A stretch of 64,000 bases of DNA from a virus, in the IMG/VR virus record IMGVR_UViG_3300011113_000642, positions 30,855-94,854 of that record; one strand, 5' to 3'. Positions 516 through 45,896 of this stretch are shown here, one piece after another. Every line of letters begins with the position of its first letter. Within the stretch, counting starts at the first letter, position 1. Below the pieces are notes generated by a model that was not told the origin of the DNA, searched no databases, and saw only the letters and a program-made list of their open reading frames with translations. The position numbers and the translations under genes were made by a program.

Positions 516-1193
516 ATGGCTACAAACCCTTATATTAACTTAACTTCTTATGGTCCAGAACAAAAACTGATCGAAGATATTACAGTTGAATTGATTCAAG
601 GAGTTGGCCAAGATTGTTATTATGTTCCAAGAAAGTATTTTAATATAGACAAAATATTTGGAGAAGATCCAGCATCTTCTTTTGAAAAAGCCTATCAGGT
701 TGAAATGTATATTCAATCATATAAAGGATTTGAAGGTACTGATGTAATTACACAATTTGGTTTAGAAATTAAAGACAAAATATCTTTGCTTCTTGCACGA
801 AGAAGATTTAAGGAAGAAGTTACCGATTTAGATAGCACAATAATAAGACCCAGAGAAGGTGATTTAATTTACTTTCCCCTTTCAAAGTCTTTATTTGAGA
901 TTAACTTTGTTGAACACGAAAATCCAATGTATCCACTTGGAAAATTGTATTCGTATCAAATAACTGCAGAACTTTTCACCTACAGTTACGAAACAATTGC
1001 AACAAACAATACGGCAATCAATTCTCCTTACACAAGCACAACAGCAGGTCTTTCTGGGTCTACTATCATTCCATTGGCCAACAATCTTGGTACTACTTAT
1101 GGAATTAATGATGTGTTACATACTGAAGGTAATTCTTATGGCTTTGATCCCAATGACCCCTTTAATGAAGGAGGATGCTCTGGGGGAGCATAA
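516..1193 (+). CDS. gp14: T4-like neck protein gp14
   Basis: YYVPR, FGED, RPREGDLIYFP, FEINFVEHE..YPLGK motifs; synteny. Confidence 0.93.
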   Translation: MATNPYINLTSYGPEQKLIEDITVELIQGVGQDCYYVPRKYFNIDKIFGEDPASSFEKAYQVEMYIQSYKGFEGTDVITQFGLEIKDKISLLLARRRFKEEVTDLDSTIIRPREGDLIYFPLSKSLFEINFVEHENPMYPLGKLYSYQITAELFTYSYETIATNNTAINSPYTSTTAGLSGSTIIPLANNLGTTYGINDVLHTEGNSYGFDPNDPFNEGGCSGGA

Positions 1194-1198
1194 CAATT

Positions 1199-1858
1199 AT
1201 GTTTGGTTATTTTTACAATCAAAATTTACGTAAATTGGTGGTAGCCTTTGGTTCTCTATTTTCTAATATAGAGATTGCTCACAAAGATCCCAATACTGGA
1301 ACAAATAAAAATATTCGGGTTCCAATTCACTATTCTCCCCAAGAAAAGTTTATTCAAAGACTTTTGCAGCCTTCTTCTATTACTACAGGAACTAGAGTTG
1401 AAATACAAGTTCCAATTATTAGCTTCAATATAAACAATATTATTGTTGATAATGGGAGAAAGTTTAATCGATTTGCAAGAAACGATAGCGTAGGTGCCGG
1501 CTGTCCAGATGGTTCTGCAATAGAATCACAAATTCCGGTAAACGTTTCATTTAATTTATTTGTCTATACAAGGCACACAGACGATATGTTACAAATTGTG
1601 GAACAAATTATGCCATACTTTGTTCCAGATCACACCATCACAATGGATTTAAACTCTGTACAGCAAAATGTAAATATTCCAATTATATTGGTTAATAATA
1701 ATTTATCTGAAAGATATGATGGAGACTTTTCAAGTCGTAGATTAAATATTGCGTCGTTTCAATTTTTGGCTAAGTCTTGGATTTTTGGAAAAGTACAAAG
1801 CGCAACAGGAATTACAGGCTTTGTAAGTGGAGCAACAACAGGCATTGTTTTTGACTAA
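1199..1858 (+). CDS. gp15: tail terminator/sheath stabiliser gp15
   Basis: MFGYFYN..LRKLVVAFGSLF, RVPIHYSPQEKF, LQIVEQIMPYF.P; start moved to ATG 1199. Confidence 0.92.
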   Translation: MFGYFYNQNLRKLVVAFGSLFSNIEIAHKDPNTGTNKNIRVPIHYSPQEKFIQRLLQPSSITTGTRVEIQVPIISFNINNIIVDNGRKFNRFARNDSVGAGCPDGSAIESQIPVNVSFNLFVYTRHTDDMLQIVEQIMPYFVPDHTITMDLNSVQQNVNIPIILVNNNLSERYDGDFSSRRLNIASFQFLAKSWIFGKVQSATGITGFVSGATTGIVFD

Positions 1859-1860
1859 TT

Positions 1861-2310
1861 ATGAGTATTAATAAAAATTTAAGCAAACTCTTTAATGTTG
1901 GTGAGTTAAAAAACGAACCAACAAATAAAAATCTTGTTGGTGGTACTTTTGATTCAGAATCCTTTCAAAAAGATTATGAATTAGTAAGATCCAATTTAAA
2001 AGACTTAATAGGAAATGGAAACACAGCATTAGAATCTGCTTTAAAAGTAGCTACTGAATCCGATAGCCCAAGGGCTTATGAAGTTGTGGCTATTCTTTTA
2101 AAGACAATGGCCGATTTAAACAATAATGTTCTGGATGTTCATAAAAAAGCAAAAGATACAACGGCGGCACCAGCTACAAAAATCACACAAACAAACAATT
2201 CAGTATTTGTGGGATCAACCAAAGATTTACAAAATCTTTTAAATAAAGAAAGAAGCACCGAAAAAATTATCGATGCAGAGGTTGTGAATGATGAACCAAA
2301 ACAAAAATAA
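1861..2310 (+). CDS. gp16: terminase small subunit gp16
   Basis: DYELVRSNL, SPRAYEV, NNSVFVGSTKDLQ motifs. Confidence 0.92.
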   Translation: MSINKNLSKLFNVGELKNEPTNKNLVGGTFDSESFQKDYELVRSNLKDLIGNGNTALESALKVATESDSPRAYEVVAILLKTMADLNNNVLDVHKKAKDTTAAPATKITQTNNSVFVGSTKDLQNLLNKERSTEKIIDAEVVNDEPKQK

Positions 2311-10989: not shown

Positions 10990-12399
10990 ATGCAATTTCA
11001 AGAAAACACACCATATGATATTCTCACCGAGAAGTGGGACCCTGTCATTAATCACGAAGCTCTTCCCAAGATTCAAGACGATTACCGCAAGAAGGTAACC
11101 GCCGTTCTCTTGGAGAACCAAGAACAAGCTCTTCGCCAACAACACCTCATTGAGGATATGGGTGGCAATGCTAATCTTGGTGGTCCAGCAACTTCTACTG
11201 GATACAATAACGGTCAAGTTTCTGGTTACGACCCAGTTCTAATCAGCTTGATTCGTCGTTCTATGCCAAACCTAATGGCATATGATATCTGCGGCGTTCA
11301 ACCAATGACCGCCCCAACCGGCCTTATCTTTGCTATGCGTGCCAACTACCAATACGGTGGTACAGGCTACACCTATGGCAATGCTGGTTATGTCGAAGCC
11401 ATGTTCCAAGAGCCACAACCATCTTACGGTGGTTCTGGTTGGACTCTAAACGCAACCTTTGCTGCTTCTAAAGGTCTTTCCGCTGGTTGGAACTATGCTT
11501 CCGGTGTAACTTCAACCGCTGCACAACTTGCTGCTCTTCGTGGTATTCTAACCGCTGATGGTGAAGGTATCGGTAAGAGTGGTAATTATGCTAACTGGAA
11601 TCAAATGGCCTTCTCAATCGACCGTGTTGCTGTCCAAGCTCGTACACGCGCTCTAAGCAGCAACTATACTGTCGAATTGGCTCAAGACCTCAAGGCTGTT
11701 CACGGTCTCGATGCTGAAGCCGAACTCGCAAATCTTCTCAGCACCGAAATTCTTGCTGAAATTAATCGCGAGATCGTCAAGACCATCTACTACGTTGCTA
11801 AGACAGGTACTCAACAACCTGATATTCAACAAAGGGGTGTTTACGATCTTGATATTGATTCTGATGGTCGTTGGTCTGCTGAACGCTTCCGTGGTCTCAG
11901 TTTCCAAATTGAGCGCGAATGCAATCAAATTGCCAAGGAAACCCGTCGTGGTAAGGGTAACTTCATTATCTGCGATAGCGATACCGCAGCTGCCCTCGCC
12001 ATGTCTGGCTTCATGAGCCTCAGCCCAGCAATTGCTCCTCAACTAAACGTTGATGATACTCAAAGCACATTTGCTGGTATTTTGAGTGGTAAGATCCGCG
12101 TCTACATCGATCCATATAGCCCAGCAGGATTTAACTTCTTCGTTACTGGCTATAAGGGCGAATCGCCATATGACGCTGGTCTCTTCTACTGCCCATACGT
12201 TCCTCTCCAAATGGTTCGTGCAGTAGATCCAAATACTTTCCAACCACGTATTGCCTTCAAGACCCGTTATGGTGTAGTTGCTAACCCATTCGTTATCAAC
12301 ACCACCACCGGCCAACCAGATGGTGAAACTCTCACCGCCGGCTTGAACCACTATTACCGCTTAACTAGCGTTACCAACCTCCACGGTAACACTATCTAA
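10990..12399 (+). CDS. gp23: major capsid protein gp23
   Basis: GVQPMTAPTGLIFAMR, ELAQDLKAVHGLDAEAELANLLSTEI, YCPYVPL, FQPRIAFKTRYG. Confidence 0.99.
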   Translation: MQFQENTPYDILTEKWDPVINHEALPKIQDDYRKKVTAVLLENQEQALRQQHLIEDMGGNANLGGPATSTGYNNGQVSGYDPVLISLIRRSMPNLMAYDICGVQPMTAPTGLIFAMRANYQYGGTGYTYGNAGYVEAMFQEPQPSYGGSGWTLNATFAASKGLSAGWNYASGVTSTAAQLAALRGILTADGEGIGKSGNYANWNQMAFSIDRVAVQARTRALSSNYTVELAQDLKAVHGLDAEAELANLLSTEILAEINREIVKTIYYVAKTGTQQPDIQQRGVYDLDIDSDGRWSAERFRGLSFQIERECNQIAKETRRGKGNFIICDSDTAAALAMSGFMSLSPAIAPQLNVDDTQSTFAGILSGKIRVYIDPYSPAGFNFFVTGYKGESPYDAGLFYCPYVPLQMVRAVDPNTFQPRIAFKTRYGVVANPFVINTTTGQPDGETLTAGLNHYYRLTSVTNLHGNTI

Positions 12400-15725: not shown

Positions 15726-16361
15726 ATGATTATAGATCTTCGCGAAATACCAGTAGTCTGGATTAATTTAGATTCTGCAACAGAAAATGCTAAAGTTATG
15801 CAGGATCGTTTAAATCAACGTGGATTTAAAAATACTTACAGAAAATCTGCTAGAATTATTGTTGCTCCACCCGGAACAATTCCAAGCAATGCTCATTATG
15901 TTGGTTGTGCACAATCACATATTGATATTTTAGATGATTCAAATTATGGTACGCCTCTTTTAATTTTAGAAGATGATGCTGAATTTTCTGAAGCATTTAA
16001 TCCTATAATTAATATTCCAGATAATGCAGATGGTATTTATTTAGGAGTTTCTACTGGAAATAGAGGATACAAAACAAAAAGATATAATCAAGATTACTTA
16101 AGAATTGGTGGTATTTTGGCCACACACGCAATTTTATATGTAAAACCAGATTTTAAAACTATAATGTCACAGGCCGCTAAACATTGCATATACGATTTAC
16201 AACAACCATGGGATGTAGGTGCAGCTTCTGTGCAGTTTCATACTAAAGTTTATACTCCAAATAAGCCTTATTTTTATCAAGCAGATTCTCGACAATCTGC
16301 AAATAAATGGCAATTTTTTACTGATCAAGAATTGGAAGATAGAAATTCGGAATATTTATGA
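15726..16361 (+). CDS. glycosyltransferase, GT25-like
   Basis: VWINLD, GCAQSH, LILEDDA, LATHAILY. Confidence 0.8.
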   Translation: MIIDLREIPVVWINLDSATENAKVMQDRLNQRGFKNTYRKSARIIVAPPGTIPSNAHYVGCAQSHIDILDDSNYGTPLLILEDDAEFSEAFNPIINIPDNADGIYLGVSTGNRGYKTKRYNQDYLRIGGILATHAILYVKPDFKTIMSQAAKHCIYDLQQPWDVGAASVQFHTKVYTPNKPYFYQADSRQSANKWQFFTDQELEDRNSEYL

Positions 16362-17146
16362 TTACATTTAAATCTTTAGGCAATTATGGTAGATTTGGAA
16401 ATCAAATGTTTCAATACGCTACGCTTTTTGCAATAGCCAAAAAAAGAAAATATCAATTTGGTGTACCGTATAAAAATCGCCACCAAAACGATTACACGGA
16501 TTTTTGTTTACCAGATTGTTTTCCAAATTTAACAGCAAAAAATTCATCTGACGCAAATATTAAATTTGTAGCACAACAATTTATTTTTGAATACAATCCG
16601 GGTATTTTTGGTATTCTAGACGACACCGATATACGTGGTTATTTTCAAAGTGAAAAATATTTTGTTGATTACCGTGAACAACTTTTAAAAGAATATGAAT
16701 TTAGTAAGCAAATAAAAGATAAAGCTTTAGATATAAGGTCACTGACACAAAAACAAGCTATATCGATTCACATTCGTTTGGGTGATTATGTCAACCAACA
16801 ACAAAATCATCCTGTTTGTTCGATTGATTATTACGCTGAAGCATTGGAACAACTTCCAGATGACTTGCTGATTTATGTTTTTAGTGATGAAAATAAAAAA
16901 GCCGAACAAATTTTTAAATCATTGAATAAAAAAATAGTGTTCACAGAATCATCGGACAAATATGTTGATATGTGTACTATGGCATTATGTGATTATCATA
17001 TCATAGCTAATAGTTCTTTTAGCTGGTGGGGGGCATGGTTGTCTAATTCCAAGAAAGTAATAGCCCCATCTAAATGGTTTGGTAATGCTGAACACATGCC
17101 AAAGAATTGGTCAGATGTTTATTGTGAAGGATGGGTTGTAATATGA
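16358..17146 (+). CDS. alpha-1,2-fucosyltransferase family (GT11)
   Basis: GRFGNQMFQYA, GYFQSEKYF, HIRLGDY, IIANSSFSWWGAWL. Confidence 0.92.
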   Translation: MITFKSLGNYGRFGNQMFQYATLFAIAKKRKYQFGVPYKNRHQNDYTDFCLPDCFPNLTAKNSSDANIKFVAQQFIFEYNPGIFGILDDTDIRGYFQSEKYFVDYREQLLKEYEFSKQIKDKALDIRSLTQKQAISIHIRLGDYVNQQQNHPVCSIDYYAEALEQLPDDLLIYVFSDENKKAEQIFKSLNKKIVFTESSDKYVDMCTMALCDYHIIANSSFSWWGAWLSNSKKVIAPSKWFGNAEHMPKNWSDVYCEGWVVI

Positions 17147-17982
17147 ATACAGAAAATGTTACAGCCATAATTCCAATAAGAATTGATTCACCAGAACGAT
17201 TAAAAAATATTAATACAACAATTTCCTTTTTATTAAAATTTTATAACTGTAAAATTATAGTAAAAGAAGTTGATGCAAATCAAAAAGTTTTTTTAAAAAA
17301 TAATCCAAGACTTACTTACATTTTTGAACAAACAAATGATTTATCTTATTTTCACAGAACCAAAATATTAAATGATATGTTATTTCTTGTTGAAACAAAA
17401 TACACAATCAATTATGATTGTGATATATTGATTCCACAAGAAAATATGTACAAAACATTAAAAATGTTAGAAGAGGGATATGATTTTGTTTTTCCTTATG
17501 CAAAAGGAACTTTTTTAACATATTGGAATTTTAATGATCAGCAAATAGAAAAAATTTTATCTGACACCGATACATCTTGGTTGTCTTATTTGTTAAAAAA
17601 ATACCCCATATCAACGATTCATCCAGGCTTAGAAGTATTTAAAAAATTAAATTTAGGCAAAATAATTACAGCTGGGGGAATTCAATTTATTAAAACAGAT
17701 TCATATAAAAAAGCATTTGGAGAAAACGAATCTTTTATAGATTGGGGTCCAGAAGATCAGGAAAGGTTATATAGATTTTTTATTTTAGGATATAAGATAG
17801 GCTGGATTGATTTTAACTGTGTAATTCATATGAATCACCCAAAATCAGCAGCGACTGACGCCAATAATATGTACAATCAAAAAAACCACGAATTGTGGGA
17901 TTACATTACAAGTACATTTAAAACTAAAGAACAGTTAACAGATTATTTAAAATTGTTACCTTATACAAATAGGTTTTTATGA
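17143..17982 (+). CDS. GT-A glycosyltransferase (GT2/GT7C galactosyltransferase-like)
   Basis: IIPIRID..ERL.N, YDCD (DxD), ENESFIDWGPED. Confidence 0.8.
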   Translation: MNTENVTAIIPIRIDSPERLKNINTTISFLLKFYNCKIIVKEVDANQKVFLKNNPRLTYIFEQTNDLSYFHRTKILNDMLFLVETKYTINYDCDILIPQENMYKTLKMLEEGYDFVFPYAKGTFLTYWNFNDQQIEKILSDTDTSWLSYLLKKYPISTIHPGLEVFKKLNLGKIITAGGIQFIKTDSYKKAFGENESFIDWGPEDQERLYRFFILGYKIGWIDFNCVIHMNHPKSAATDANNMYNQKNHELWDYITSTFKTKEQLTDYLKLLPYTNRFL

Positions 17983-18911
17983 AAAACACAAAGTATAAAA
18001 TTATTTTTTGGGGTTATCCACTACACACCGACACATTAAGTTATGTGTGGCATGCTCTGAAGAGAGCATTTGAATATCTTGGTTATGAATGTTATTGGTT
18101 TGATGACAATACATGTCCAGATAACTTTAATTATGAAAACTGTGTGTTTGTTACTGAAGGTAAGGCATGCAATAAGATGCCTATCCTAAAGGACAATACT
18201 TATATTGTGCATTATCTACATCAACCAGAACGGTTTCTCGGTAATGTCAATAGATTGATAGACATGAGGTATATGATAGATCGCCATTTTGGTGATCCGT
18301 TGTATACATGGGAATTTGATAAAAACAATTGCATTAAATTAGATGACGGGATTTATTATGATAATAATGCAGTACCTTATGAAAAAATTTACATAGCTTG
18401 GGCTACAAATTTATTACCACATGAAATAAATTTTGAAAATCGTTTTATCGAAAGAAAACCAGTTTTTAATTTTATAGGATCCATAAGCCCGAGCCATCAA
18501 TGGGGGCAGCATGATCAAATTCAAGAATTTATGGATGAATGTAGTAAAAACAACATTGTTTGTAACCATTACAATCCTTGGGTCAACCCACAAACGGAAG
18601 AAAATTTAATAAAATTAACACAGGAGTCTATTATTGCTCCAGACTTTCGTGGTCCAAAACATTTAGAAATAGGTCTTATGCCTTGTAGGTTATTTAAAAA
18701 CATATCCTATGGCCAATTAGGATTAACAAATTCGCCAAGAGCACATTATTATTTAGAAGAGACCACCGTTTTTTCTAACTCACCGTCTGAAATATTTTAT
18801 TTAGGGATGAATAATAAGACCAACTATGATTTGATAAAAAAACAAATGGAGTTAGTCAAAGCAAAACATACTTACATAAATAGAATACGTGGGCTGATTA
18901 AATTATTATAA
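17979..18911 (+). CDS. GT-B glycosyltransferase (CgeB/Glyco_trans_1_2-like)
   Basis: PCRLFKNISYG and C-terminal VKAKHTYINR motifs; island context. Confidence 0.65.
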   Translation: MKNTKYKIIFWGYPLHTDTLSYVWHALKRAFEYLGYECYWFDDNTCPDNFNYENCVFVTEGKACNKMPILKDNTYIVHYLHQPERFLGNVNRLIDMRYMIDRHFGDPLYTWEFDKNNCIKLDDGIYYDNNAVPYEKIYIAWATNLLPHEINFENRFIERKPVFNFIGSISPSHQWGQHDQIQEFMDECSKNNIVCNHYNPWVNPQTEENLIKLTQESIIAPDFRGPKHLEIGLMPCRLFKNISYGQLGLTNSPRAHYYLEETTVFSNSPSEIFYLGMNNKTNYDLIKKQMELVKAKHTYINRIRGLIKLL

Positions 18912-18927
18912 CAAAGTGAGTATTTAA

Positions 18928-19536
18928 ATGTTTTATAGTGATGCAAAACAAGATGAATTTATAGCTAGATTATTAAATTTTTCTAAAAAAGGTTTTTATG
19001 TTGATATTGGAAGCTGTGGTGCGATAGAATCGAACAATACTTATTTTTTTGAAAGTTTAATGTGGAATGGAATATGCATAGAACTTGAAGCTAGGTATAA
19101 CCATACTTATTCCGCTCGTAATTGCAAATATCTAAATGCAGACGCATTGAAGATAAATTATAAAAAATTATTTGAAGAAGTATCTGCTCCAGACAATATT
19201 GATTATTTGTCTTTAGACATTGACACACAGAGTGTTAATGTTTTAAAATTGTTACCCTTTGACACTTACATTTTTAAAATTATAACAATCGAACACGATG
19301 CATATCTATATGGTGACATCTATAAGTCAGAACAAACTAATATTTTGGCTTCTTTTGGATATATAAAACTGTTTGAAAATGTTTTTGTCCAACAAGTTGG
19401 TTTTAATAAATTAAATTGCCCCTTTGAAGACTGGTGGGTTCATCCTAGTTTTTTTGATTTAAACAAGTTAACTAATTTAAAATCCTGCAACGTATATCCA
19501 TCCGAAATAATAGAAAAGTTAAAAAACTATGATTAA
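18928..19536 (+). CDS. FkbM-like (Methyltransf_21) SAM methyltransferase
   Basis: QD, GFYVDIGS, SNNTYFFE, WNGICIE, IDYLSLDID, FEDWW. Confidence 0.8.
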   Translation: MFYSDAKQDEFIARLLNFSKKGFYVDIGSCGAIESNNTYFFESLMWNGICIELEARYNHTYSARNCKYLNADALKINYKKLFEEVSAPDNIDYLSLDIDTQSVNVLKLLPFDTYIFKIITIEHDAYLYGDIYKSEQTNILASFGYIKLFENVFVQQVGFNKLNCPFEDWWVHPSFFDLNKLTNLKSCNVYPSEIIEKLKNYD

Positions 19537-20158: not shown

Positions 20159-20160
20159 AT

Positions 20161-21075: not shown

Positions 21076-21095
21076 TTTGTTTTTGATAAAATACG

Positions 21096-21104
21096 TGGTA
21101 TAAT
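21096..21104 (+). promoter_or_regulatory. extended -10 promoter inside the island
   Basis: TGG-TATAAT then AAGGA SD before ATG 21123. Confidence 0.55.
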
Positions 21105-21122
21105 TTAAACTTAAGGAAAAAT

Positions 21123-25100: not shown

Positions 25101-25101
25101 T

Positions 25102-33671: not shown

Positions 33672-34895
33672 ATGCACATGTATAATTTAACTCTTGCAAT
33701 GATCGTAAAAAACGAGGCACCAAACATCGAAAGATGCTTAACCTCAGTCGCACCATTTATTAATTATTATGTAATCTGTGATACAGGTTCTACTGATAAC
33801 ACCAAAGAAATTATTAAAAAGTTCTTTGATGAAAAAGGAATTCCAGGAGAAATTCACGATCATGAATGGTCTGACTTTGGTACAAATCGTTCCAAAGCTC
33901 TTGAACTTTGCTATGGAAAGACTAAATGGGCTATCATGATTGATGCCGACGATTTTATTACCGGTACTCTTCCAGTTGATAAATTTGATGATTCTTTAGA
34001 TGGTTATGTGGTACAAATTCAAAGAGGTGAGTTCCGTTGGTTGCGTGCTCAGCTTTTTAATCTTGGTAAAAAGAAGTGGTGGTATGAAGAGCCACTACAC
34101 GAATATGCAATTTGTGAACAGCCCATGAATGTTAAAAAACTAGATGGTGATTATGCCTGGGAAGTAAGAACCGAGGGTTGCCGCGCAAGATCTTTTGCAA
34201 ATGATATTGAAAAGTATAAAAAAGATTATGAAACTTTAAAGGGTTATTTAGAAAAAGATCCAAACCAACCACGAAAACAATTCTATGCTGCTCAGTCTGC
34301 ATTTGATTCAAGGATGTTTGATATTGCAGAGCAAGAATACCTAAAAAGAATTGCTTTGGGTTCTTGGCCAGAAGAAGTATTTTTCTCTTGGATGCGTGTT
34401 GGTATGTGCCGAGAATTTTTAAATAAACCTGTTGAACAAATTGCTGATGCATTTATGATGGCCTTTGAAGTCGCTCCACACCGAGTAGAGCCATTATATC
34501 ATCTTTCTTGCATCTATCGTAAGTATGATCGTCCAAGAAACGCATTTTTAGTTGCATCTCTGGGCCTTACTATTCCGATTCCTGAAAATGATATTTTGTT
34601 TGTTGATCGTGCTAATTACCTTTGGGGTATTTACGATGAAATTGGTACAACAGCATTTTATGCTGGAAGAGCACAAATTGGCCTTTTAGCTTGTGAAAAG
34701 CTTCTAAAGGAAACACATATGCCGGAGGAGCATCGGGGGCGTATAGCCAATAATCATAAAATTTATGTTGAACATATGAAAAAAATGCAAGAAGAGTATT
34801 TAAAACAGCAAGAGGCTTTGTCGCAAAAAATACAAAAAGAGGCCAATAAAACTACATTGGTAATTAATCCAGAAGCGGCTACAGTAAAGCTTTGA
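33672..34895 (+). CDS. GT2 glycosyltransferase with C-terminal TPR-like repeats (probable protein glycosyltransferase)
   Basis: MIVKNE, DTGSTD, DFGTNR..AL, IDADD, LHEY; helical TPR-like FYAAQS...P.RVEPLY. Confidence 0.85.
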   Translation: MHMYNLTLAMIVKNEAPNIERCLTSVAPFINYYVICDTGSTDNTKEIIKKFFDEKGIPGEIHDHEWSDFGTNRSKALELCYGKTKWAIMIDADDFITGTLPVDKFDDSLDGYVVQIQRGEFRWLRAQLFNLGKKKWWYEEPLHEYAICEQPMNVKKLDGDYAWEVRTEGCRARSFANDIEKYKKDYETLKGYLEKDPNQPRKQFYAAQSAFDSRMFDIAEQEYLKRIALGSWPEEVFFSWMRVGMCREFLNKPVEQIADAFMMAFEVAPHRVEPLYHLSCIYRKYDRPRNAFLVASLGLTIPIPENDILFVDRANYLWGIYDEIGTTAFYAGRAQIGLLACEKLLKETHMPEEHRGRIANNHKIYVEHMKKMQEEYLKQQEALSQKIQKEANKTTLVINPEAATVKL

Positions 34896-34969: not shown

Positions 34970-35365
34970 ATGGCAGATAGTTTTGATCCTACTGTAATTA
35001 GAGGCGACACCCTACGCTGGCAAATGGCACTTCAGGATAGCACTGGAGCCACTTATAACTTAACGGGCGTTACCCTTAGTTTGCAGGTTCGTAAATCTTA
35101 TTTTCCAGGTGCAACCCTATTTTCTACATCTTTGTATGTGACTTCTGGAAGTACTCTTTATACTTTAGATGGAATTACTGGGGGCCTTTCAGCAACAGGA
35201 ACTGGTGGAATATGCAATATTTGCATTGGATCAGCGTATACTGTTAATTTTCCGCAATATTCTGGTGGTTTTTATGATATACAAGCAGTTAAACCAAATA
35301 ATGCTGGTGTAGATACACTATTGCGTGGAAAAATTAATGTTCTTCCAGATGTAACGGAGGCATAA
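34970..35365 (+). CDS. virion structural protein (BppU/baseplate-adaptor-like)
   Basis: RGDT..W, YNLTG....QVRKS, YDIQ, LLRG.I.V.P.VT pattern typical of fibre-associated Ig-like proteins. Confidence 0.6.
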   Translation: MADSFDPTVIRGDTLRWQMALQDSTGATYNLTGVTLSLQVRKSYFPGATLFSTSLYVTSGSTLYTLDGITGGLSATGTGGICNICIGSAYTVNFPQYSGGFYDIQAVKPNNAGVDTLLRGKINVLPDVTEA

Positions 35366-35367: not shown

Positions 35368-37512
35368 GTGACAGATATTATTTCTTCCAGTAATGAAATA
35401 CCTGTTGTTAATGTAACAGTTAATACAAATTCGCTGGCTAGAGTTGAAGTTACTCCTGGCGGTGGGATTGGTGGAGGAGGAGGGGGTCCGGGTTCTACGG
35501 GGGCGACTGGCCCAATGGGGCCAACCGGTCCAACCGGACCAACTGGTTCTCAGGGAATAACTGGTAATACTGGCCCGACTGGACCAATAGGACCACAAGG
35601 AAATACTGGAGCAACAGGACCGACAGGATCTACTGGTTTACCTGGAGATATATTTGCTACTTCTTCTACTACTTCGGTTAATCTTTCATCAATAACTATA
35701 GGTTCCGAAGTATCTCTCAGCACAGAAACTGGTTTAGCATATACCAAAGTGCAAGACATTTTAATAGCAAGTGGACTTACAAACTATTTTAATGCACAAA
35801 TCATATCATATATTGGAGCGACACTAAATGTTTCTGTTACCGGGATAACTGGCTCGGGAACTTGGAATAATTGGGACATAAATTTGGCTGGCCCCATAGG
35901 TCAAGCTGGTCCTCAAGGCCCACAAGGTATTCAAGGAAACACGGGGGCTACTGGTGCTATACCAACAGAATATGTTGCTAACTTTAATGGACTTACAGGA
36001 AATGTATTAACTTCATTTGTTTCTGGATTGAATGGAAGCACTGGAATACAACTTATAACATTTTCAAATCCAAATCCTCCATATGGAGATTCTTTAACTA
36101 TTAGAAATACGGGTGTTTTGTCATATAATGGCACTGGTGGAAATGTTGTTGGCGTTTCTTCTCTCGCAGTTAGTTCTGGGCTTCTTCGACTTAGTGGGGC
36201 AACCGGGGATGTAACTATCAGCAACAATGGTGTTTTGTCATTTAATGAGCAAAATGGTCATATTCAAGGTGTTAATTCTGTAAATGGAGCAACAGGTTCC
36301 GTTCAAGCAGTTAACCGAATCAATGGTATTACTGGAAATATCGGTTTAACATCTGGTTCGGGAATAGCAATTTCTTCATCTGGAAATACTTTTACTGTTT
36401 CTAATAGTGGTGTTTTATCTGTTAGTATAGTGTCTCCTGGTGGAATTAATTTGGGTGGTTCATCATCAAATATAACTCTTTCAAATGGTGGTGTTTTAAG
36501 TTTTAATAATTCTAGTGGAAATGTTGTCGGTGTTTCTTCGGTTTCTGGTTTAACTGGTTCTATTGGAATTTCAGCAGGAAATAATATTATAATTTCTTTA
36601 AGTGGAAATACTTTAATAATTGGTGCTACTGGAACAATAGGAAATACAGGTAATACGGGACCAACAGGACCTGAAGGACCACAGGGTATTCAAGGCATAC
36701 AAGGTATTCGGGGAAATACAGGTAATACGGGACCAACAGGACCTGAAGGACCACAGGGTATTCAAGGCATACAAGGTATTCAAGGCATACAAGGTATTCA
36801 GGGAAATACAGGTAATACGGGACCAACAGGACCATTACCAACAAATTTTATTTCTTTCTTTAATGGGTATACGGGTATAGTAGGTATTAGTGCCGGCAGT
36901 AATATTACAATAACTCCATCTACTTCAGCTAGTGGAACAACGTTTACTATTGCTTCTACTGCTTCTGGAAGCGGTGGTTCCACATTTATTCCAGACCTTA
37001 GACCTTTGGGTGTTACTGCTGACATTATTGCAATGCGTAATGGTGGCTGGACTTTGGCAAAACCAAATAGTATTTCTTTCCCTCAAGTAAATTTGGGAGC
37101 AATAGCCGTTACAATTGGTGGTTTAACATCATGGAGTGCTGCAAAATTTCGATCTACAGTATATGCGGGCTCTACATTATGGTTAACATTAGGTGATGGA
37201 ACATTTTTATGTTTTAACAGAGCAGAAATAGATCCTTTTCTTATTGCTAATGGTGGTTTTTCTGCAGGTCCAGCAACACAGATGACTATTTTACAAGGCT
37301 TAGGAGTGACTTGGCCATCGGGAACAATAACAAATCATACAAATGTTCAAGGTGGAGCGCCCAACGGTCAAAATCAAACATTGTGGGTTAATTGGATGGA
37401 CGGTGGAAATTATATAATCCATTCGGGCTGGGCAATTAAATTAAGTGGAATTACTTCTGGTGGTGTTGGTAGTGGAGGAATTGGTGGTGGTGGAGGCATC
37501 CAGCCATTATAA
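35368..37512 (+). CDS. collagen-like tail fibre/spike (Gly-X-Thr repeats plus V.SFNG.TG.V repeats)
   Basis: GATGPMGPTGPT..., repeated GVLSFNG.TG.V motifs. Confidence 0.8.
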   Translation: MTDIISSSNEIPVVNVTVNTNSLARVEVTPGGGIGGGGGGPGSTGATGPMGPTGPTGPTGSQGITGNTGPTGPIGPQGNTGATGPTGSTGLPGDIFATSSTTSVNLSSITIGSEVSLSTETGLAYTKVQDILIASGLTNYFNAQIISYIGATLNVSVTGITGSGTWNNWDINLAGPIGQAGPQGPQGIQGNTGATGAIPTEYVANFNGLTGNVLTSFVSGLNGSTGIQLITFSNPNPPYGDSLTIRNTGVLSYNGTGGNVVGVSSLAVSSGLLRLSGATGDVTISNNGVLSFNEQNGHIQGVNSVNGATGSVQAVNRINGITGNIGLTSGSGIAISSSGNTFTVSNSGVLSVSIVSPGGINLGGSSSNITLSNGGVLSFNNSSGNVVGVSSVSGLTGSIGISAGNNIIISLSGNTLIIGATGTIGNTGNTGPTGPEGPQGIQGIQGIRGNTGNTGPTGPEGPQGIQGIQGIQGIQGIQGNTGNTGPTGPLPTNFISFFNGYTGIVGISAGSNITITPSTSASGTTFTIASTASGSGGSTFIPDLRPLGVTADIIAMRNGGWTLAKPNSISFPQVNLGAIAVTIGGLTSWSAAKFRSTVYAGSTLWLTLGDGTFLCFNRAEIDPFLIANGGFSAGPATQMTILQGLGVTWPSGTITNHTNVQGGAPNGQNQTLWVNWMDGGNYIIHSGWAIKLSGITSGGVGSGGIGGGGGIQPL
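36640..36833 (+). repeat. near-perfect ~72-nt tandem repeat with nested 18-nt units, encoding GNTGNTGPTGPEGPQGIQGIQ
   Basis: Copies start at 36640, 36712 and 36802. Confidence 0.9.
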
Positions 37513-37525: not shown

Positions 37526-39535
37526 ATGTTCTTTGGAAAGAACAAAACATCTCTAAAATTGGCTAAACAGCACCCAGAATTGCTGATGGGGTGTGAGTAT
37601 TATATAATAGAATCTTCAAATAACCCAAAGAAGATTAAAGTTGGTTCTGGTATTTCTCAATTATATTTGCGTAACTCTGATGGTGAAGAATATCTTATAG
37701 AAGGTAATAGCACAAAAATCAAAGAACTTTTTACTCCTTCCAAAACTTATGAAAGTATGGAAGGAAAACTTTTTAAAACAACAAAGCCATTTGGTAATTT
37801 TTTTCAATTCCAAATGCTTAAAGAAATTGCTCCTTGCCAGTACGATGAAAAAATTCAATTAGGTAATGGTATCTCGGAGCATTACTTCATTGTTAAGGGT
37901 TCAAATAAAATTGTAAAAGTTTATGGCAACTCTAGCCAGATTAAAAATCTTTTAGAAGAAGTCAATATACCAAAGCCAGCGGTGGTTCCTGCGCCAAAAT
38001 TACAAACTAAAATTGAAGTAGTAGAAAAAGTTATTATAAAAGAAACAACTCCAGTTATTGGTGCACAAGGACTTCAAGGAGAAAAAGGTCTAAAAGGAGA
38101 ACGGGGAGACCGTGGAGAACGCGGTGAAATTGGTCCACGTGGTCCAGAAGGCAAAGAAGGCCCGCAAGGAATACCGGGCCCACCGGGACCAGAAGGACCC
38201 AGAGGCCCACAAGGACAAAAAGGTGATCCTGGTATTCCAGGTGAAAGGGGCGAAAAAGGCGAGCGTGGAGATATTGGTCCCATTGGCCCACAAGGTGAAA
38301 AAGGTGAACCCGGTAATGATGGTTTACAAGGACCTATAGGTGAACGGGGGCCACAGGGAGAGAAAGGTGATATTGGTGAAACTGGTCCTCAAGGAGAACA
38401 AGGTATTCCCGGTCCAATTGGTCCCGTGGGACCACGGGGACCTGCTGGTATTCAAGGACCAAAAGGCGAACAAGGTGAACAAGGTATACCTGGTCCTCCC
38501 GGAGAAAGTTCAATTGTAAATGTTGAATATCCTTTAGTTCTTGAAGATAATACTATATCTCTTGATAAAAATCATATCACCAAGATACTTGAAAAATTTA
38601 AAGGCACATCTTCTGATGAGTTAGCCCAACAACTCAGCAGACTTGCGACTCCCGGTGGTGGAGCGGTGGGAATTATAAGAAGAGTTGGCAATCAAGACAC
38701 ACGAATAATAAAATCTGTAAATGATTTAATTTTTACTGGTTCGGGTGTTACGATTACTAAAAAAAGAAAAAACGTAGAAATTAATATTGCTGGTGTTGAG
38801 GGGGCAGTTACAAAATTAACAGCAGGGGCGGGAATTACATTATCACCAGAAACGGGAATTGGTGATGTGACTATTACAAATCTTATTTCGTTAAAGGCAC
38901 TTCCCGGTTCAATACAATTTGCCAATTCCGGTGTTGATGATTTAGATGCAAGCGCAAGATTTAAATTTATCAAAACAACCTCAACTTTAGAAGTTCCCGG
39001 TGCACTTGAACTAAATTCTACCGCTGGTTACGCTTCATATATTCAATTTCCTAATGGCACAACACAGGGTACAGCTCCTAATAGATTTTATTATCAAACT
39101 ACATCTCCCTCTGGTGTAACGCAAGGTGACCGTTGGATGGACTCTGACAATGGTATTGAATATGTTTATATCTACGATGGTAACACAAATCAATGGGTGC
39201 AGCCCACAAACACGGGCGGCTCCAGTACCACAACAATTTCTGTTCTTACAACTACTTCAGTAACGGGAGCAACGTATGCAGCTCTTCCAACGGATTATTA
39301 TATTGGTGTAAGTTATGCTGGACCAGTAACAGTTACACTTCCAACTAACCCAGAAACCGGAAGAGAAATTGTAGTAAAAGATGAATCCGGAAACGCAGGC
39401 AACGGAGTCAATCGTCAAATCACGGTTGTCGGAGCCACTACATCACATAAGATTGATAATCAAAGTTCTGCAATAATTAACCTAGACAATGCTGGTCTGC
39501 ATTTTATCTACAGATCCGGCTGGAGAATAATATAA
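37526..39535 (+). CDS. collagen triple-helix fibre protein
   Basis: About 50 continuous GXY triplets (GPQGEKGER type); GDRW.D.D.G module; C-terminal TVTLP...GREIVVKDESG domain. Confidence 0.8.
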   Translation: MFFGKNKTSLKLAKQHPELLMGCEYYIIESSNNPKKIKVGSGISQLYLRNSDGEEYLIEGNSTKIKELFTPSKTYESMEGKLFKTTKPFGNFFQFQMLKEIAPCQYDEKIQLGNGISEHYFIVKGSNKIVKVYGNSSQIKNLLEEVNIPKPAVVPAPKLQTKIEVVEKVIIKETTPVIGAQGLQGEKGLKGERGDRGERGEIGPRGPEGKEGPQGIPGPPGPEGPRGPQGQKGDPGIPGERGEKGERGDIGPIGPQGEKGEPGNDGLQGPIGERGPQGEKGDIGETGPQGEQGIPGPIGPVGPRGPAGIQGPKGEQGEQGIPGPPGESSIVNVEYPLVLEDNTISLDKNHITKILEKFKGTSSDELAQQLSRLATPGGGAVGIIRRVGNQDTRIIKSVNDLIFTGSGVTITKKRKNVEINIAGVEGAVTKLTAGAGITLSPETGIGDVTITNLISLKALPGSIQFANSGVDDLDASARFKFIKTTSTLEVPGALELNSTAGYASYIQFPNGTTQGTAPNRFYYQTTSPSGVTQGDRWMDSDNGIEYVYIYDGNTNQWVQPTNTGGSSTTTISVLTTTSVTGATYAALPTDYYIGVSYAGPVTVTLPTNPETGREIVVKDESGNAGNGVNRQITVVGATTSHKIDNQSSAIINLDNAGLHFIYRSGWRII

Positions 39536-40770
39536 TGTCATACCTATTCAATGATCTCGTTGGGTTCAAGGATAATGCAATAGATGCATTTAATCGTCTT
39601 AAAGTTGCAAATCCATTTACAGTATTTGACAGCCAAAACAGATATCAACCAAATGACAAGTGGGATATATTTGGAGTAACTGGAGGAACATATTCGTATT
39701 CCTTAAATGAAAGTGCCGTTAATTTAATAGTTGGTACAACTGCAGGCTCTAAAGTTACAAGAGAAACCAAAAGAGTGTTCCCTTATCAGCCCGGTAAATC
39801 TCTTTTAGTATTAAGCACATTTGCATTCAATCAGCCAAAAACTGGATTGAGACAAAGAATTGGATACTTTGGAATTACTGGTGGCGCTACAGCTGGAATT
39901 CCATACAATGGAGTTTATCTAGAACAAAATGGATTAACTCTAAGCATGAATTTGGTCTCTGCTTCTTTGGGCACAACCATAACAGCCAACCAATCGGATT
40001 GGAATGGAGATGTTTTTGATGGAACTGGTTCTTCTGGCAGAGATTTGGATATAACAAAGGCAAACATTTTTTGGATGGATATTGAATGGCTTGGAGTTGG
40101 TGATGTAAGAACTGGATTCTTTGTAGATGGAAGACCAGTTATTGCACACACATTTCACAATGATAATATAAATTCTACAGCCTACATGACTACGGCATGT
40201 CTTCCAATTAGATATGAACTTGAAAATTTGACAGGGCAGACAGGAGGCAGCCAATCAAAACAAATTTGTTCGTCAGTAGTTTCTGAAGGTGGTTATGAAG
40301 GATTCAGCAGACGATATAATATTTCTACAGATGCCACCACACTTACTTTGGTATCTGCTGGAACATATTATCCCGTTTTGTCAATTAGATTGAATTCAAA
40401 CAGATTGGATTCAATCATAGTCCCATCAAATATTAGTGCTATCGTAGAATCTGCTGGCGCAGCATGGGTGCATTACCGAATTGTTTTGGGTGGAACTTTT
40501 ACTGGCACCGCACCAACCTGGCACACCCATTATAATGGAAATGTAGATTACGTTGTACATGTAAACACTACTGGTTTGACCGGGGCAACGGATGTTGTTG
40601 GTGGTTACATAAATGCAGGTGGAGTGTCAGATATCAGTTCTCAGAATGATTTTAATTTCCAATTGGGAAGAACTCAAACTGGTGTGAGTGATATCATAAC
40701 ATTGGTTGCTGCTGGGGCATCACCAAATGTAAAATTTGCAGCAGACCTTTCTTGGTTCGAAATAGTATAA
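39535..40770 (+). CDS. conserved phage virion protein (lectin-like beta fold)
   Basis: DAFNRL.V..P.T.FD, YQPGKS, EWLGVGDVR.GF, LPIRYE, SEGG motifs seen in aquatic-phage structural proteins. Confidence 0.65.
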   Translation: MSYLFNDLVGFKDNAIDAFNRLKVANPFTVFDSQNRYQPNDKWDIFGVTGGTYSYSLNESAVNLIVGTTAGSKVTRETKRVFPYQPGKSLLVLSTFAFNQPKTGLRQRIGYFGITGGATAGIPYNGVYLEQNGLTLSMNLVSASLGTTITANQSDWNGDVFDGTGSSGRDLDITKANIFWMDIEWLGVGDVRTGFFVDGRPVIAHTFHNDNINSTAYMTTACLPIRYELENLTGQTGGSQSKQICSSVVSEGGYEGFSRRYNISTDATTLTLVSAGTYYPVLSIRLNSNRLDSIIVPSNISAIVESAGAAWVHYRIVLGGTFTGTAPTWHTHYNGNVDYVVHVNTTGLTGATDVVGGYINAGGVSDISSQNDFNFQLGRTQTGVSDIITLVAAGASPNVKFAADLSWFEIV

Positions 40771-40780: not shown

Positions 40781-41650
40781 ATGCCATTAGATTTTCCCAC
40801 ATCTCCAGCACTGAATGAAATTTACACTTTTGGTGGACGTTCTTGGCAATGGAACGGAACCGCTTGGGATGTTTATAGTACCGTCAGCGGAACTGTAGTT
40901 ACAACTTTAAATGGTTTGTCCGGTGGCGTAACTTTGGCTGCAGGGTCAAATATTACTTTGTCGCCAGTGGGCAATACTATAACCATTGCATCAAGTGGAG
41001 GTGGAGGAGGAGGAACTGGAAATAATTTTACGGAATCCACATCTGCACCAACTCCGTTATTTGCTGGAGATCGGTGGTTTGACACAGACGAAGGAAATTT
41101 ATATACAGCTGTTACCGATGATAGCGGATTAATTTGGGTTCAACTGAACGCTGGAATTGTAGGAGCATCTGGACCAGCGGGCAACACTGGAGCCACAGGA
41201 GCCACAGGACCACAAGGAAACACTGGAGCCACAGGAGCCACGGGACCACAAGGAAACACTGGTGCTACTGGACCACAAGGAAACACTGGAGCCACAGGAG
41301 CCACGGGACCACAAGGAAACACTGGAGCCACAGGACCACAAGGAAACACTGGTGCTACTGGACCAGTTGGAGATTATGTAATTTCTTTGAGGGGTCTAAC
41401 TGGAGCAGTAGGACTCACTAACAACAGCGGAATCGGTTTAAGTGTTTCTGGTCAGACCCTTACTTTTAGCAACACAGGAGTTTTGAGTGTTAATGGTTTA
41501 ACCGGAGTAGTCACTTTTGCAGCAGGATCTGGAATAACTCTTTCTACATTGGGAAATACCATCACAATAGGAAATGGATATAACATTACTTCTGGTACAG
41601 CTGCACCAACAGGTGGAGTCAGCGGCGATATTTACATTCAGTACACATAA
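40781..41650 (+). CDS. short collagen-like fibre protein
   Basis: [18 protein letters not shown]-terminus; (GNTGATGPQ)n; ends [19 protein letters not shown]. Confidence 0.75.
41180..41365 (+). repeat. 27/36-nt tandem repeats encoding GNTGAT(GAT)GPQ
   Basis: Repeated GGAAACACTGG(A/T)GC(C/T)AC.GGACCACAA. Confidence 0.9.
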
Positions 41651-43339: not shown

Positions 43340-43507
43340 ATGCCACTAAGAATACGAACACCGTCCATTAGTTCACCCTCCACCAATTCCATATGGTGGC
43401 TTAATGTTGGTGGAGTGTGGAAGCAGGGAACCGTGTGGATCAATGTGAGTGGGGTCTGGAAACAGGCTACGAGGATCTGGTTCAATGTTTCGGGGACTTG
43501 GAAGTAA
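43340..43507 (+). CDS. 55-aa protein with three W.NV.G.WK repeats (fibre-tip-type motif), not in ORF track
   Basis: MPLRIRTPSISSPSTNSIWWLNVGGVWKQGTVWINVSGVWKQATRIWFNVSGTWK; GGAG SD. Confidence 0.75.
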   Translation: MPLRIRTPSISSPSTNSIWWLNVGGVWKQGTVWINVSGVWKQATRIWFNVSGTWK

Positions 43508-43530
43508 ATAATAGGGATAAATATTAAGTA

Positions 43531-45129
43531 ATGGCAATCAATTTTCCCAATAGTCCCGCACCAAATGAAATATACACCTTCAATGGATTATCTTGGAGGT
43601 GGACTGGTTCATCGTGGACAAGTTTGGGAACGGCTGTTATAGGTGCAACAGGAGCCACTGGACCACAAGGAAACACTGGTGCAACTGGGCCCCAAGGAAA
43701 CACTGGTGCAACTGGACCTGTTGGCGATTATGTCATTTCTATCCGTGGTCTTACAGGTGCGGTAGGAATCACCAACGGCAGCGGAATCGGTCTGAGTGTT
43801 TCTGGTCAGACAATGACCTTCAGCAATACTGGAGTTTTGAGCATTGACGGTGGTACTGGTGCCATTACGAATGTTGCTAGAACTAATGTTGATAATAATT
43901 TTAGTGCAAGTCAAACTATTAGTTTAATTAATCCATTCTTAAATCTTGAAGATACGAATACATCAAATATGATTACATTTGATGTGTCTTCAAAAAGTAT
44001 AACTTTTATTGATAATACAGTAGATGATGGTGTTGAAACAACACTTTATTTTAATCCTGTGGGTGCTATCGGTTTTGTAAATACTGGAATTACTTTTCCA
44101 AGTTATAGTACCGTTTTAGCTGGTCTTGCTGGAACTCAAACTTTTACTGGAATTAATACATTTACATCTAGAACAAACTTTAATAGTGGTATAAGTGCTT
44201 CTGGTGGAATAACATTTGCAAATGATATTCGTGTTAATAGTCTTACGGTTGGAAGAGGTGCTGGAAATGTAGATAGTAATGTTGCAATAGGTTTTAATTC
44301 TTTTGATGCCAATGTAAGTGGTAGTAATAATATTGCTATTGGTTATGATGCACTAGGTTCAAATACTATAGGTAATAACAATGCAGCAATTGGACGTTCT
44401 GCTTTGGGTGCTAATACTACAGGAACTGATAATGTTGCTATAGGAAATTCATCATTACAAAATATAACTACAAGCTCCAAAAATATTGCAATAGGTTCTG
44501 ATGCCGGTCGATTACGAGCAAATGGTAATGTTTTAACAAGTGCAACTGGCGGTATTTACATTGGATATAATTCAAGAGGATTTACTTTAGCACAAACTAA
44601 CGAAATTGTAATAGGAACAGATGCACTTGGTTTGGGTTCCAATACAGCAGTCATCGGGGCAACTTCACAAACAGCCGCGACAATTTATGGATTGTTGAAT
44701 ACTCCGGGTGGTTTGAGTGCTGCCGGTGCAACTTTCAGTTCACTTGTAATATTTAATGCCGGAATTTCTGCGGCTGGTGGAGTAACCTTTAGCGGAACAA
44801 TTGCTTCTGATACTGGTTACAGAATTACATCAAACGCAATAAATGCACAGACCGGAACCACATACACGTTCTTGGCTTCAGATAATGGTAAAATTGTTAC
44901 ATTTAACAATGGTTCTGCAATAACTGTAACTATACCCACAGGACTTCCTGTTGGCTTCAACTGCACAGGAATCCAGCTAGGTGCAGGACAAGTAGGATTT
45001 ACCACAGAATCAGGAGTTACACTTCAAAGTTATGGAAATCAATACAAAATGATAGGTCAGCATGCTTCTGCTACTATTATTGAATATTCAAATAACATTG
45101 TGAATCTTTCAGGAAATTTAATTGTATGA
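43531..45129 (+). CDS. tail fibre/adhesin with short collagen segment and YadA-head-like N.AIG..AL..N repeats
   Basis: N-terminus paralogous to 40781..41650; NVAIG/NIAIG repeats; C-terminal TYT...DNGK...TVTIP domain; GATAAATA at 43516. Confidence 0.78.
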   Translation: MAINFPNSPAPNEIYTFNGLSWRWTGSSWTSLGTAVIGATGATGPQGNTGATGPQGNTGATGPVGDYVISIRGLTGAVGITNGSGIGLSVSGQTMTFSNTGVLSIDGGTGAITNVARTNVDNNFSASQTISLINPFLNLEDTNTSNMITFDVSSKSITFIDNTVDDGVETTLYFNPVGAIGFVNTGITFPSYSTVLAGLAGTQTFTGINTFTSRTNFNSGISASGGITFANDIRVNSLTVGRGAGNVDSNVAIGFNSFDANVSGSNNIAIGYDALGSNTIGNNNAAIGRSALGANTTGTDNVAIGNSSLQNITTSSKNIAIGSDAGRLRANGNVLTSATGGIYIGYNSRGFTLAQTNEIVIGTDALGLGSNTAVIGATSQTAATIYGLLNTPGGLSAAGATFSSLVIFNAGISAAGGVTFSGTIASDTGYRITSNAINAQTGTTYTFLASDNGKIVTFNNGSAITVTIPTGLPVGFNCTGIQLGAGQVGFTTESGVTLQSYGNQYKMIGQHASATIIEYSNNIVNLSGNLIV

Positions 45130-45896
45130 TTACACCAAGCGGTAAAATTGGAATAATCGACAGTCTTCGAAATTACTCTACTGATGGATTGATTTTGAAT
45201 GTGGATTTTTCCAACGACTATGGATTTGCAGGCAATACTGCAAACGATTTGTCAAACAGCACAGTAAAATATTCAACTCCGGGTGGTTATGTTGCTCTTG
45301 TATCGGGTTCAACTGCTATGCCCGGTTACATTGATTTAGATGGGTCAACAGACTACTTAATCGCAGGCTCAACTCTATCTGCATTTGCAGGACTCACCGC
45401 ATTCACGATTGACGCTTGGGTTAAGTTAGATACTTCGCTAACACGGGCAATAGTATCAAACAACGCCGCCGCAGCCGGGTCAGCAAACAAAGGGTTTGCT
45501 CTTATTATCCTTTCTGATAGAACTCCAAGAATAAACCTGAATACAGGATCAGTAAGTTATATCGGCACACTCTCTGGTTTGACTATGGGTACGGGTGAAT
45601 GGACAAATTGGTTCATAACCGTAGAGGAAACGGTTGTTGGTACAACATCCGTAATGAAAGGAAAAGTATTCAGACCCGCAGGACGGTCTGCATCTGATTT
45701 TACGGGAGTATCCATCAGTATAGGAGCACAAGGAATCACAAGCAGCAATCTCATAGCAATCGGAAGACGCTCCACAGCAGCCCTTCAGTATTGGGATGGA
45801 ATGATTGGTGCTGTAAAGGTATACAACAGAGTACTGCCCGAGTCCGAAATGGATTTCAACTACAACGCAGCAAAAACACGCTATGGTCATACATAA
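45126..45896 (+). CDS. LamG-like domain virion protein
   Basis: DGL.L..D, LDGSTDY, FTIDAWVK, IG.VKVYNRVL, YNA.KTRYG. Confidence 0.78.
   Translation: MITPSGKIGIIDSLRNYSTDGLILNVDFSNDYGFAGNTANDLSNSTVKYSTPGGYVALVSGSTAMPGYIDLDGSTDYLIAGSTLSAFAGLTAFTIDAWVKLDTSLTRAIVSNNAAAAGSANKGFALIILSDRTPRINLNTGSVSYIGTLSGLTMGTGEWTNWFITVEETVVGTTSVMKGKVFRPAGRSASDFTGVSISIGAQGITSSNLIAIGRRSTAALQYWDGMIGAVKVYNRVLPESEMDFNYNAAKTRYGHT

Follow-up and report, generated by a model that had tools for sequence, protein, structure and literature searches.

A G-x-T motif enriched across the virion proteins of an uncultured T4-like phage clade, and a GmaR/SunS-type enzyme as its candidate glycosyltransferase

We analysed a 64,000-nucleotide stretch of viral DNA (the window), bases 30855-94854 of the 94.8-kb viral contig IMGVR_UViG_3300011113_000642 in IMG/VR. 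The tripeptide G-x-T is markedly over-represented in the virion proteins encoded there, and a putative glycosyltransferase of family 2 carrying TPR repeats (GT2-TPR) is encoded directly upstream of several of them. An initial annotation of the window had proposed that G-x-T/S is the acceptor motif of a virion-wide O-glycosylation system. Here we describe the locus, the motif and the enzyme, and weigh this proposal against its alternatives.

Results

Gene content and order

The order of genes in the window is T4-like. It begins with gp13, gp14, gp15, the small and large terminase, a short sheath and two tube paralogues, continues with portal, prohead protease, scaffold and gp23, and then with a gp3-like gene, UvsW and UvsY. 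A sugar island follows, and after it gp55, gp47/46, gp45, gp44, gp62 and regA. Beyond regA lie the GT2-TPR gene, a gene for a 131-amino-acid protein (p131), four collagen-like or fibre proteins and further virion proteins (Table 1), downstream of which are dUTPase, DNA polymerase, UvsX, gp41, ThyX and a class II ribonucleotide reductase. Three proteins matched the tail-tube family phrog_45: the adjacent tube paralogues after the sheath (5292-5840 and 5852-6376) and the gp3-like protein after the capsid gene (12479-12997). The capsid protein is 53% identical to cyanophage gp23. A megablast search of the window against 50,697 phage records returned only short capsid-gene matches, and no deposited phage matched at the DNA level. 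Judged by its sequence, the contig is from an uncultured T4-like lineage.

The sheath was identified by blastp against fetched genomes, in which its C-terminal ~190 residues matched gp18 of T4 (E 1e-5), S-PM2 (E 8e-8) and S-PRM1; tblastn against the 50,697 phage records gave no match. The conserved C-terminal domain and the gp17-gp18-gp19 order, with the large terminase and tube genes flanking, mark it as a probable T4-type sheath. It is only 43-51% identical to the sheaths of the close relatives G002 and G004, compared with 80-83% for the capsid protein, and is thus far faster-evolving. An AlphaFold2 model built from a 6-sequence alignment had a predicted local distance difference test score (pLDDT) of 39.5, with a confident fold in the C-terminal 90 residues only.

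Table 1. Features of the window, with G-x-T counts per protein as observed vs expected from shuffled sequences
Feature	Position	Strand	Matches and remarks	G-x-T
gp14-like head closure/neck protein	516..1193	+	phrog_679, E 8e-63; C-terminal tail with GST, GTT (GLSGST..GTT..GNS)	2 vs 1.6
gp15-like tail sheath stabiliser	1175..1858	+	phrog_227; C-terminus GITGFVSGAT	2 vs 0.9
Short divergent tail sheath, 436 residues	3982..5292	+	gp18 position; weak phrog_23 match	11 vs 4.3, z 3.7
gp23 major capsid protein	10990..12399	+	phrog_138, E 4e-149; G-x-T in variable 120-175 region	6 vs 3.3
Fourteen-gene sugar island	15726..27642	+	Pfam and PHROG matches	
GT2-TPR glycosyltransferase, candidate protein O-glycosyltransferase	33672..34895	+	PF00535, E 1.4e-12	
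p131, 131-residue Ig-like virion protein	34970..35365	+	phrog_1084	6 vs 2.0
Collagen-like tail fibre with GxT triplets and non-collagen GxTG repeats	35368..37512	+	PF01391, fibre PHROGs	45 vs 17.2, z 7.9; collagen masked 21 vs 8.2
Collagen-like fibre with Thr-poor triplets	37526..39535	+	PF01391, E 7e-26	8 vs 7.7
Virion structural protein	39535..40770	+	phrog_1645	12 vs 4.5, z 4.1
Collagen-like fibre protein with GNTGATGAT triplets	40781..41650	+	PF01391	24 vs 10.2
Fibre/tailspike-like virion protein	43531..45129	+	phrog_6002, phrog_4636	19 vs 10.5
LamG/ConA-like virion protein	45126..45896	+	PF13385	9 vs 3.1, z 3.8

G-x-T is over-represented in virion proteins

Expected counts were obtained for each protein from 1000 composition-preserving shuffles. 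In a pooled set of 28 structural proteins, with runs of at least four G-x-y triplets masked as collagen, we counted 167 G-x-T where about 90 were expected (z 8.8 for global shuffles, 8.1 when shuffling was kept within 20-residue blocks). The 90 non-structural proteins showed no enrichment (60 vs 56), and neither did the portal (0 vs 1.4) or the large terminase (2 vs 2.0). A difference of this kind between virion proteins and the rest is the over-representation looked for in a sequon. Virion proteins that are neither fibre nor collagen contained 99 G-x-T against 49.4 expected, and proteins encoded in the upstream baseplate region of the contig were also in excess (8 vs 3.4, 12 vs 5.3 and 9 vs 3.1). 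The initial annotation was thus correct that the motif extends beyond collagen repeats and is sparse in portal, terminase and non-structural proteins. All the examples it quoted are present, namely those in gp14, gp15, the sheath, the capsid protein (GGTGYT, GWT, GVT) and the proteins encoded from 34970, 39535 and 45126.

Some of its details have to be narrowed. The proposed G-x-T/S acceptor stands for Thr, whilst G-x-S was not enriched in the structural proteins (97 vs 88), so that the motif is G-x-T. Tested singly against shuffles, several proteins were enriched whereas the capsid protein, gp14 and gp15 were not significant. The capsid count equals that of the P-SSM2 capsid protein, and the capsid protein is therefore not discriminating. 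The collagen-like fibre at 37526 serves as an internal negative example. In the sheath, nine of the 11 motifs fall in the fast-evolving N-terminal 240 residues, and several sites are kept at 45-52% identity. In the pooled set T-x-G, G-x-A and G-x-N were flat and G-x-V was weakly raised.

It is highly improbable that the excess is an artefact of composition or annotation, arising only because Gly and Thr are both frequent in certain segments or in degenerate collagen repeats. The structural proteins are indeed rich in Gly and Thr, and collagen runs account for 47 of the 214 raw pooled counts. The excess nevertheless withstood the 20-residue local shuffles, and G-x-T still came first when any run of at least two consecutive triplets was masked (109 vs 65.6). 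It ranked first among 370 gapped residue pairs (z 7.9; runner-up 3.6). One intervening residue was the sole enriched Gly-to-Thr spacing, spacings of 0 and 2-6 being flat. Enrichment of GGNNNNAC was confined to codon frame 0 (z 11.3; other frames 0.2 and 2.3), indicating that the signal lies at the protein level. We therefore rejected the artefact on the shuffle, spacing and frame controls, and a DNA-level cause on the frame control.

The excess is specific to a lineage carrying GT2-TPR

To compare phages we used the observed/expected ratio of G-x-T in Gly/Thr-rich proteins (at least 2 G-x-T expected) of fetched whole genomes or contigs. Eleven T4-like phages without a homologue of the GT2-TPR gene ranged from 0.61 to 1.17: T4 1.06, KVP40 1.04, HTVC008M 1.08, Syn9 1.03, S-PM2 0.98, S-PRM1 1.05, P-SSM4 1.11, P-SSM2 1.12, S-CRM01 1.17, C48C1 0.73 and G009 0.61 (0.96 leaving out a giant protein of 25% Thr). 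Amongst carriers, the ratio was 1.82 for our own contig, 1.40 and 1.34 for G002 and G004, and 1.74, 2.05, 1.19 and 1.20 for the far-clade members G005, G006, G001 and G007. An unrelated AT-rich phage fragment with a GT2-TPR homologue, G003, gave 1.61, and Tunturi_5, likewise a carrier, gave 1.06. Carriers exceeded non-carriers (one-sided Mann-Whitney p = 0.0003), a value inflated by the shared ancestry of seven carriers; there are about three effective independent lineages, two positive and one negative.

The G-x-T excess is specific to the lineage and not general to T4-like phages. These data also support an excess that tracks the GT2-TPR gene rather than the number of glycosyltransferases, since P-SSM2 is rich in sugar clusters, has no GT2-TPR homologue and shows no excess. 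Low GC content was rejected as a cause because T4, P-SSM2 and HTVC008M are of similar GC content and show no excess.

Thr-rich proteins were seen in two of these genomes. G009, which has no GT2-TPR, encodes a 2475-residue protein of 25% Thr at 46960-54387. The fibre-like proteins of G003 (143171-145123) contain poly-Thr linkers, TTTTTTTLPPTTTTTTT, that are mucin-like in look.

GT2-TPR belongs to the GmaR/SunS group

A profile of 21 GT2-TPR homologues was searched against solved structures. The closest were GmaR (22ao_A, E 3.3e-19), SunS (7msp/7msn, E 5e-16) and the SunS-related peptide glycosyltransferase 7msk (E 1.3e-13). Consensus TPR proteins matched residues 176-298 with E down to 1.7e-22. 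The DxD motif D91-A-D93-D94 (DADD) and the stretch D37-T-G-S-x-D42 are invariant in the 21 homologues. The N-terminal GT-A (GT2) domain with its DxD, the C-terminal TPR/helical repeat and the homology to characterised members confirm, at the level of sequence families, that the enzyme is a GT2-TPR as first annotated and that it belongs to the GmaR/SunS group of protein/peptide glycosyltransferases; protein transfer activity is predicted. The match to TIGR04195 (SunS) scored 37 bits, far under the 350-bit equivalog cut-off, indicating that the enzyme is not a SunS orthologue.

The gene was found at 64 syntenic IMG/VR loci, and about 1950 relatives of its family were detected in metagenomes (E 1e-10 or better), so any trait it confers would be ecologically common. 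Our homologue search for the family gave close phage relatives only, with no cellular context. The megaphage neighbourhoods of weak homologues (LR745206 and LR756501) contained no Gly/Thr-rich proteins and were set aside as uninformative. GT2-TPR itself contains four G-x-T against 0.9 expected, a feature conserved across 67 homologues (165 vs 58 pooled), which may reflect self-modification or fortuitous conserved sites.

Within the clade, the gene is always directly upstream of a small Ig-like virion protein and fibres. The order is regA, GT2-TPR, p131 and fibres in the near clade, and regA, sugar island, GT2-TPR, p131-like gene and fibres in the far clade. Across the wider clade (L167-L246 and G005-G008) the island directly follows regA with GT2-TPR as its last gene, whilst in our own clade the place of the island is between uvsY and gp55, with GT2-TPR alone left after regA. 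The gene thus stays with the virion genes even where the island is elsewhere, as on our contig. Within the gap between GT2-TPR and p131 (34896-34969) are a CTAAATA box and a presumed terminator, a perfect hairpin with a T-run after it (AATAATGGCC...GGCCATTATTTTT), so the two genes are adjacent but probably separate transcription units. The scaffold gene and the fibre genes at 37526 and 40781 are each closely preceded by a canonical TATAAATA box. By homology and gene order, GT2-TPR is a soluble member of the protein-glycosylating GmaR/SunS group, encoded throughout the clade immediately ahead of virion genes.

The sugar island encodes predicted soluble enzymes

Transferases of the island comprise GT25-like, GT11, GT7C-like, GT4 and GT6 enzymes and a phrog_33732 glycosyltransferase. 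Its other enzymes include a GDP-mannose 4,6-dehydratase, two epimerase/reductases, and FkbM-type and C-methyltransferases. The GDP-mannose 4,6-dehydratase, a GDP-fucose-synthase-like reductase, GT11 and GT6 are encoded at 16358-17146, 20161-21075, 22355-23344 and 26039-26749. GT11 is the alpha-1,2-fucosyltransferase family, and this enzyme set could in principle make an H/ABO-like fucosylated glycan. A scan for transmembrane segments found none convincing in any island protein. The content of the island differs widely among relatives. The initial count of about nine glycosyltransferases in the window can be kept as approximate: seven are backed by profile matches, and three island genes are unassigned. 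With regard to DNA glycosylation as a role for the island, ThyX is present and no hydroxymethylase was found on the contig, which is incomplete.

Sequence and structural context of the motif

In the near and far clade alike, G-x-T lies in a wider context: a hydrophobic residue at -2, S/T at -1, G, then I/L/V at +1, T, and G/F/L/A at +3, with K, D, E and P depleted around it. This extended motif is common to near- and far-clade members whose structural proteins are at most 30% identical, and it is absent in controls. In the virion proteins of the clade the motif, which is roughly hydrophobic-[S/T]-G-[I/L/V/A]-T-[G/F/L/A], is about twice as frequent as chance would give.

In orthologue alignments the motif Thr was more conserved than other Thr of the same proteins (0.66-0.68 vs 0.51), and more so in the protein encoded from 39535 (0.93 vs 0.64; 10 orthologues). 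Motif Gly residues were conserved like other Gly. Conservation of the motif flanks, at 0.49, fell short of the protein average of 0.56, and in the capsid protein the figures were 0.46 for the flanks and 0.75 for the whole protein.

AlphaFold2 predicted p131 as a confident Ig-like beta-sandwich (pLDDT 83), and Foldseek matched the model to a T5/DT57C tail-tip Ig-like protein. Homologues of p131 in G009, C48C1 and P-SSM2, which do not have GT2-TPR, contain three, one and one G-x-T respectively, compared with four to nine in carriers. They are recognisable by sequence, and at the aligned motif positions they read GSK, GSD, GED, GAS and GFS. A single mobile GxT-rich domain was rejected as the source of the motif, the p131 profile matching one standalone gene per genome.

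Discussion

We tentatively favour the reading that G-x-T is a virion-wide sequon glycosylated via the phage GT2-TPR, whilst rating it somewhat below an even chance. The enzyme would bind new or assembling virion proteins by its TPR domain and place the first sugar on a Thr that follows a Gly-containing turn. Acceptors would be Thr at the Y position of collagen triplets in fibres, and exposed strand starts in sheath, baseplate, neck and Ig-like proteins. The soluble island enzymes would provide activated sugars and lengthen the glycan; candidates for supply and extension are the GDP-mannose dehydratase, the GDP-fucose-synthase-like reductase, the methyltransferases, GT11, GT6, GT4 and the other transferases. 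Virions would in this way be released carrying a sugar coat specified by the phage. Such a phage-made coat on the particle is a plausible prediction, and shielding or mimicry as its role is speculation. The fuller picture is possible but doubtful: that an abundant uncultured aquatic T4-like clade practises general protein O-glycosylation, with a GmaR/SunS-type GT2-TPR reading [S/T]-G-hydrophobic-T in sheath, neck, baseplate, Ig-like and fibre proteins, and a soluble 14-gene island building a fucose-containing, methylated glycan.

Several observations weigh against a virion-wide sequon. Since seven of nine carriers belong to a single clade, independent support comes from G003 alone; G001 and G007 lie only marginally above the range of non-carriers. 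The motif excess accompanies the GT2-TPR gene in the clade and in G003 but not in Tunturi_5, which has a GT2-TPR homologue (32% identical), yet a ratio of 1.06. Ser is not enriched, whereas many O-glycosyltransferases accept it. Host lipid-linked glycans could just as well be the target of the soluble transferases. In the p131 model, five of the six G-x-T lie exactly at loop-to-strand transitions, and a plain turn followed by an amphipathic strand would show the same alternation of hydrophobic residues at +1, +3 and +5. T4 gp36 and gp37 (NC_000866, 155868-159622) have a local excess (6 vs 1.7 and 19 vs 11.8; 25 vs 13.5 combined), with none genome-wide in T4, whose virions are to our knowledge unglycosylated. 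GmaR and SunS, furthermore, each have a single dedicated substrate and not a proteome-wide sequon.

Some of these points are shared by a purely structural explanation, which we consider somewhat unlikely. G-x-T would be a turn-strand motif in which Gly closes a loop and a beta-branched Thr takes the first exposed strand position, frequent in the clade through the beta-rich domains and fibre repeats of its virion proteins, and the glycosyltransferases would act elsewhere, for instance on host envelope glycans during infection, the role usually suggested for cyanophage 'LPS' clusters. The strand-start placement in p131, the hydrophobic alternation and the T4 fibre proteins fit this explanation, as does the preference for Thr over Ser, which accords with beta propensity. 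Also consistent with it are the positional conservation of many sheath sites, the GLTGAVGLT...GQT repeat modules common to the fibres, and the BNR/Asp-box, S-x-D-x-G-x-T-W, a known beta-hairpin containing G-x-T. Other T4-like phages, however, also have beta-rich virion proteins, and the eleven compared show no excess. G-x-V is enriched only weakly and T-x-G is flat; the excess holds in non-fibre proteins; the p131 homologues of phages without GT2-TPR keep their sequence homology, mostly without the Thr; and an unrelated carrier of the gene, G003, shares the excess.

A narrower form of glycosylation is, in our view, unlikely. GT2-TPR would then modify only a neighbour or a small number of them: the G-x-T triplets of the collagen-like fibres, p131, or both. 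Structure or coincidence would account for the excess in sheath, baseplate and neck. Known relatives do have dedicated substrates, as with SgtA and BclA3 or GmaR and flagellin (PMC7157674; PMC9638930). GT2-TPR tightly and persistently adjoins p131 and the fibres, and the strongest excesses are in those neighbours. Against this, the extended motif and a two-fold excess also occur in proteins encoded 30-60 kb away, including the sheath and those at contig positions 17604-25199. In the far clade, the excess is further found in a 1460-residue sheath homologue (G005 40356-44738 and G006 33125-37507; 38 vs 15) and in a gp15 homologue of ~1350 residues in the same two genomes (24-26 vs 8.9).

A real virion-wide sequon would make this the first virus particle with a defined O-glycosylation sequon, and the first T4-like virion with a glycan coat. 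We know of no phage glycosylation sequon, and our literature search found no description of a G-x-T excess in phage virions. With the motif as acceptor site, glycosylated phage proteins would become predictable from sequence. The purpose of the puzzling sugar islands of aquatic T4-like phages would be explained, at least for this clade, and a glycan coat could influence how abundant environmental viruses are grazed, aggregate, adsorb and resist enzymes. Should the motif prove structural instead, one would still have to explain a clade-specific doubling of a single tripeptide over unrelated virion folds.

Comparison with known systems

Giant viruses glycosylate their particles with their own enzymes. 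Amongst phages, virion glycosylation by phage enzymes has so far been shown in mycobacteriophages, which are mostly siphoviruses and have actinobacteria as hosts. In Che8, Corndog and Myrna, phage glycosyltransferases O-glycosylate capsid and tail-tube subunits, forming a glycan shield, according to a later account (PMC12619734, citing Freeman et al. 2023). In that account, the sites are at the C-termini of two proteins, and neither a tripeptide motif dispersed over many virion proteins nor a 14-gene sugar island is described (PMC12619734).

Cyanomyophages such as P-SSM2, likewise aquatic and T4-like, have 'LPS' (lipopolysaccharide) or sugar clusters with large sets of sugar-nucleotide and glycosyltransferase genes including GDP-mannose dehydratase and GT2. 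Cyanomyophage sugar clusters also contain GT6, and are usually assumed to alter the host surface. Unlike our contig, P-SSM2 has neither GT2-TPR nor the G-x-T excess.

GmaR, the Listeria flagellin transferase of O-linked N-acetylglucosamine (O-GlcNAc), and SunS/ThuS share with the window enzyme an N-terminal GT2 (GT-A) domain with DxD and a helical/TPR domain. As soluble enzymes they glycosylate side chains of proteins or peptides in the cytoplasm, and they are its best matches of solved structure. They differ from the system proposed here in that each acts on one dedicated substrate and has no G-x-T sequon, and SunS attaches its sugar to Cys through an S-linkage. The similarity to the window enzyme is confined to the profile level.

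The motif itself has a parallel in the exosporium of Bacillus and Clostridioides, where BclA/BclA3 are O-glycosylated at Thr in their G-x-T collagen triplets and the genes for the collagen-like protein and its transferase are neighbours; the collagen repeats of BclA3 are Thr-glycosylated and its transferase SgtA is encoded alongside (PMC7157674). Unlike BclA3, the phage motif also occurs in non-collagen globular virion proteins, and its carrier is a phage particle, known from sequence alone. The phage counterpart of the BclA3-SgtA arrangement would be GT2-TPR beside collagen-like fibres with GPT, GNT and GAT triplets.

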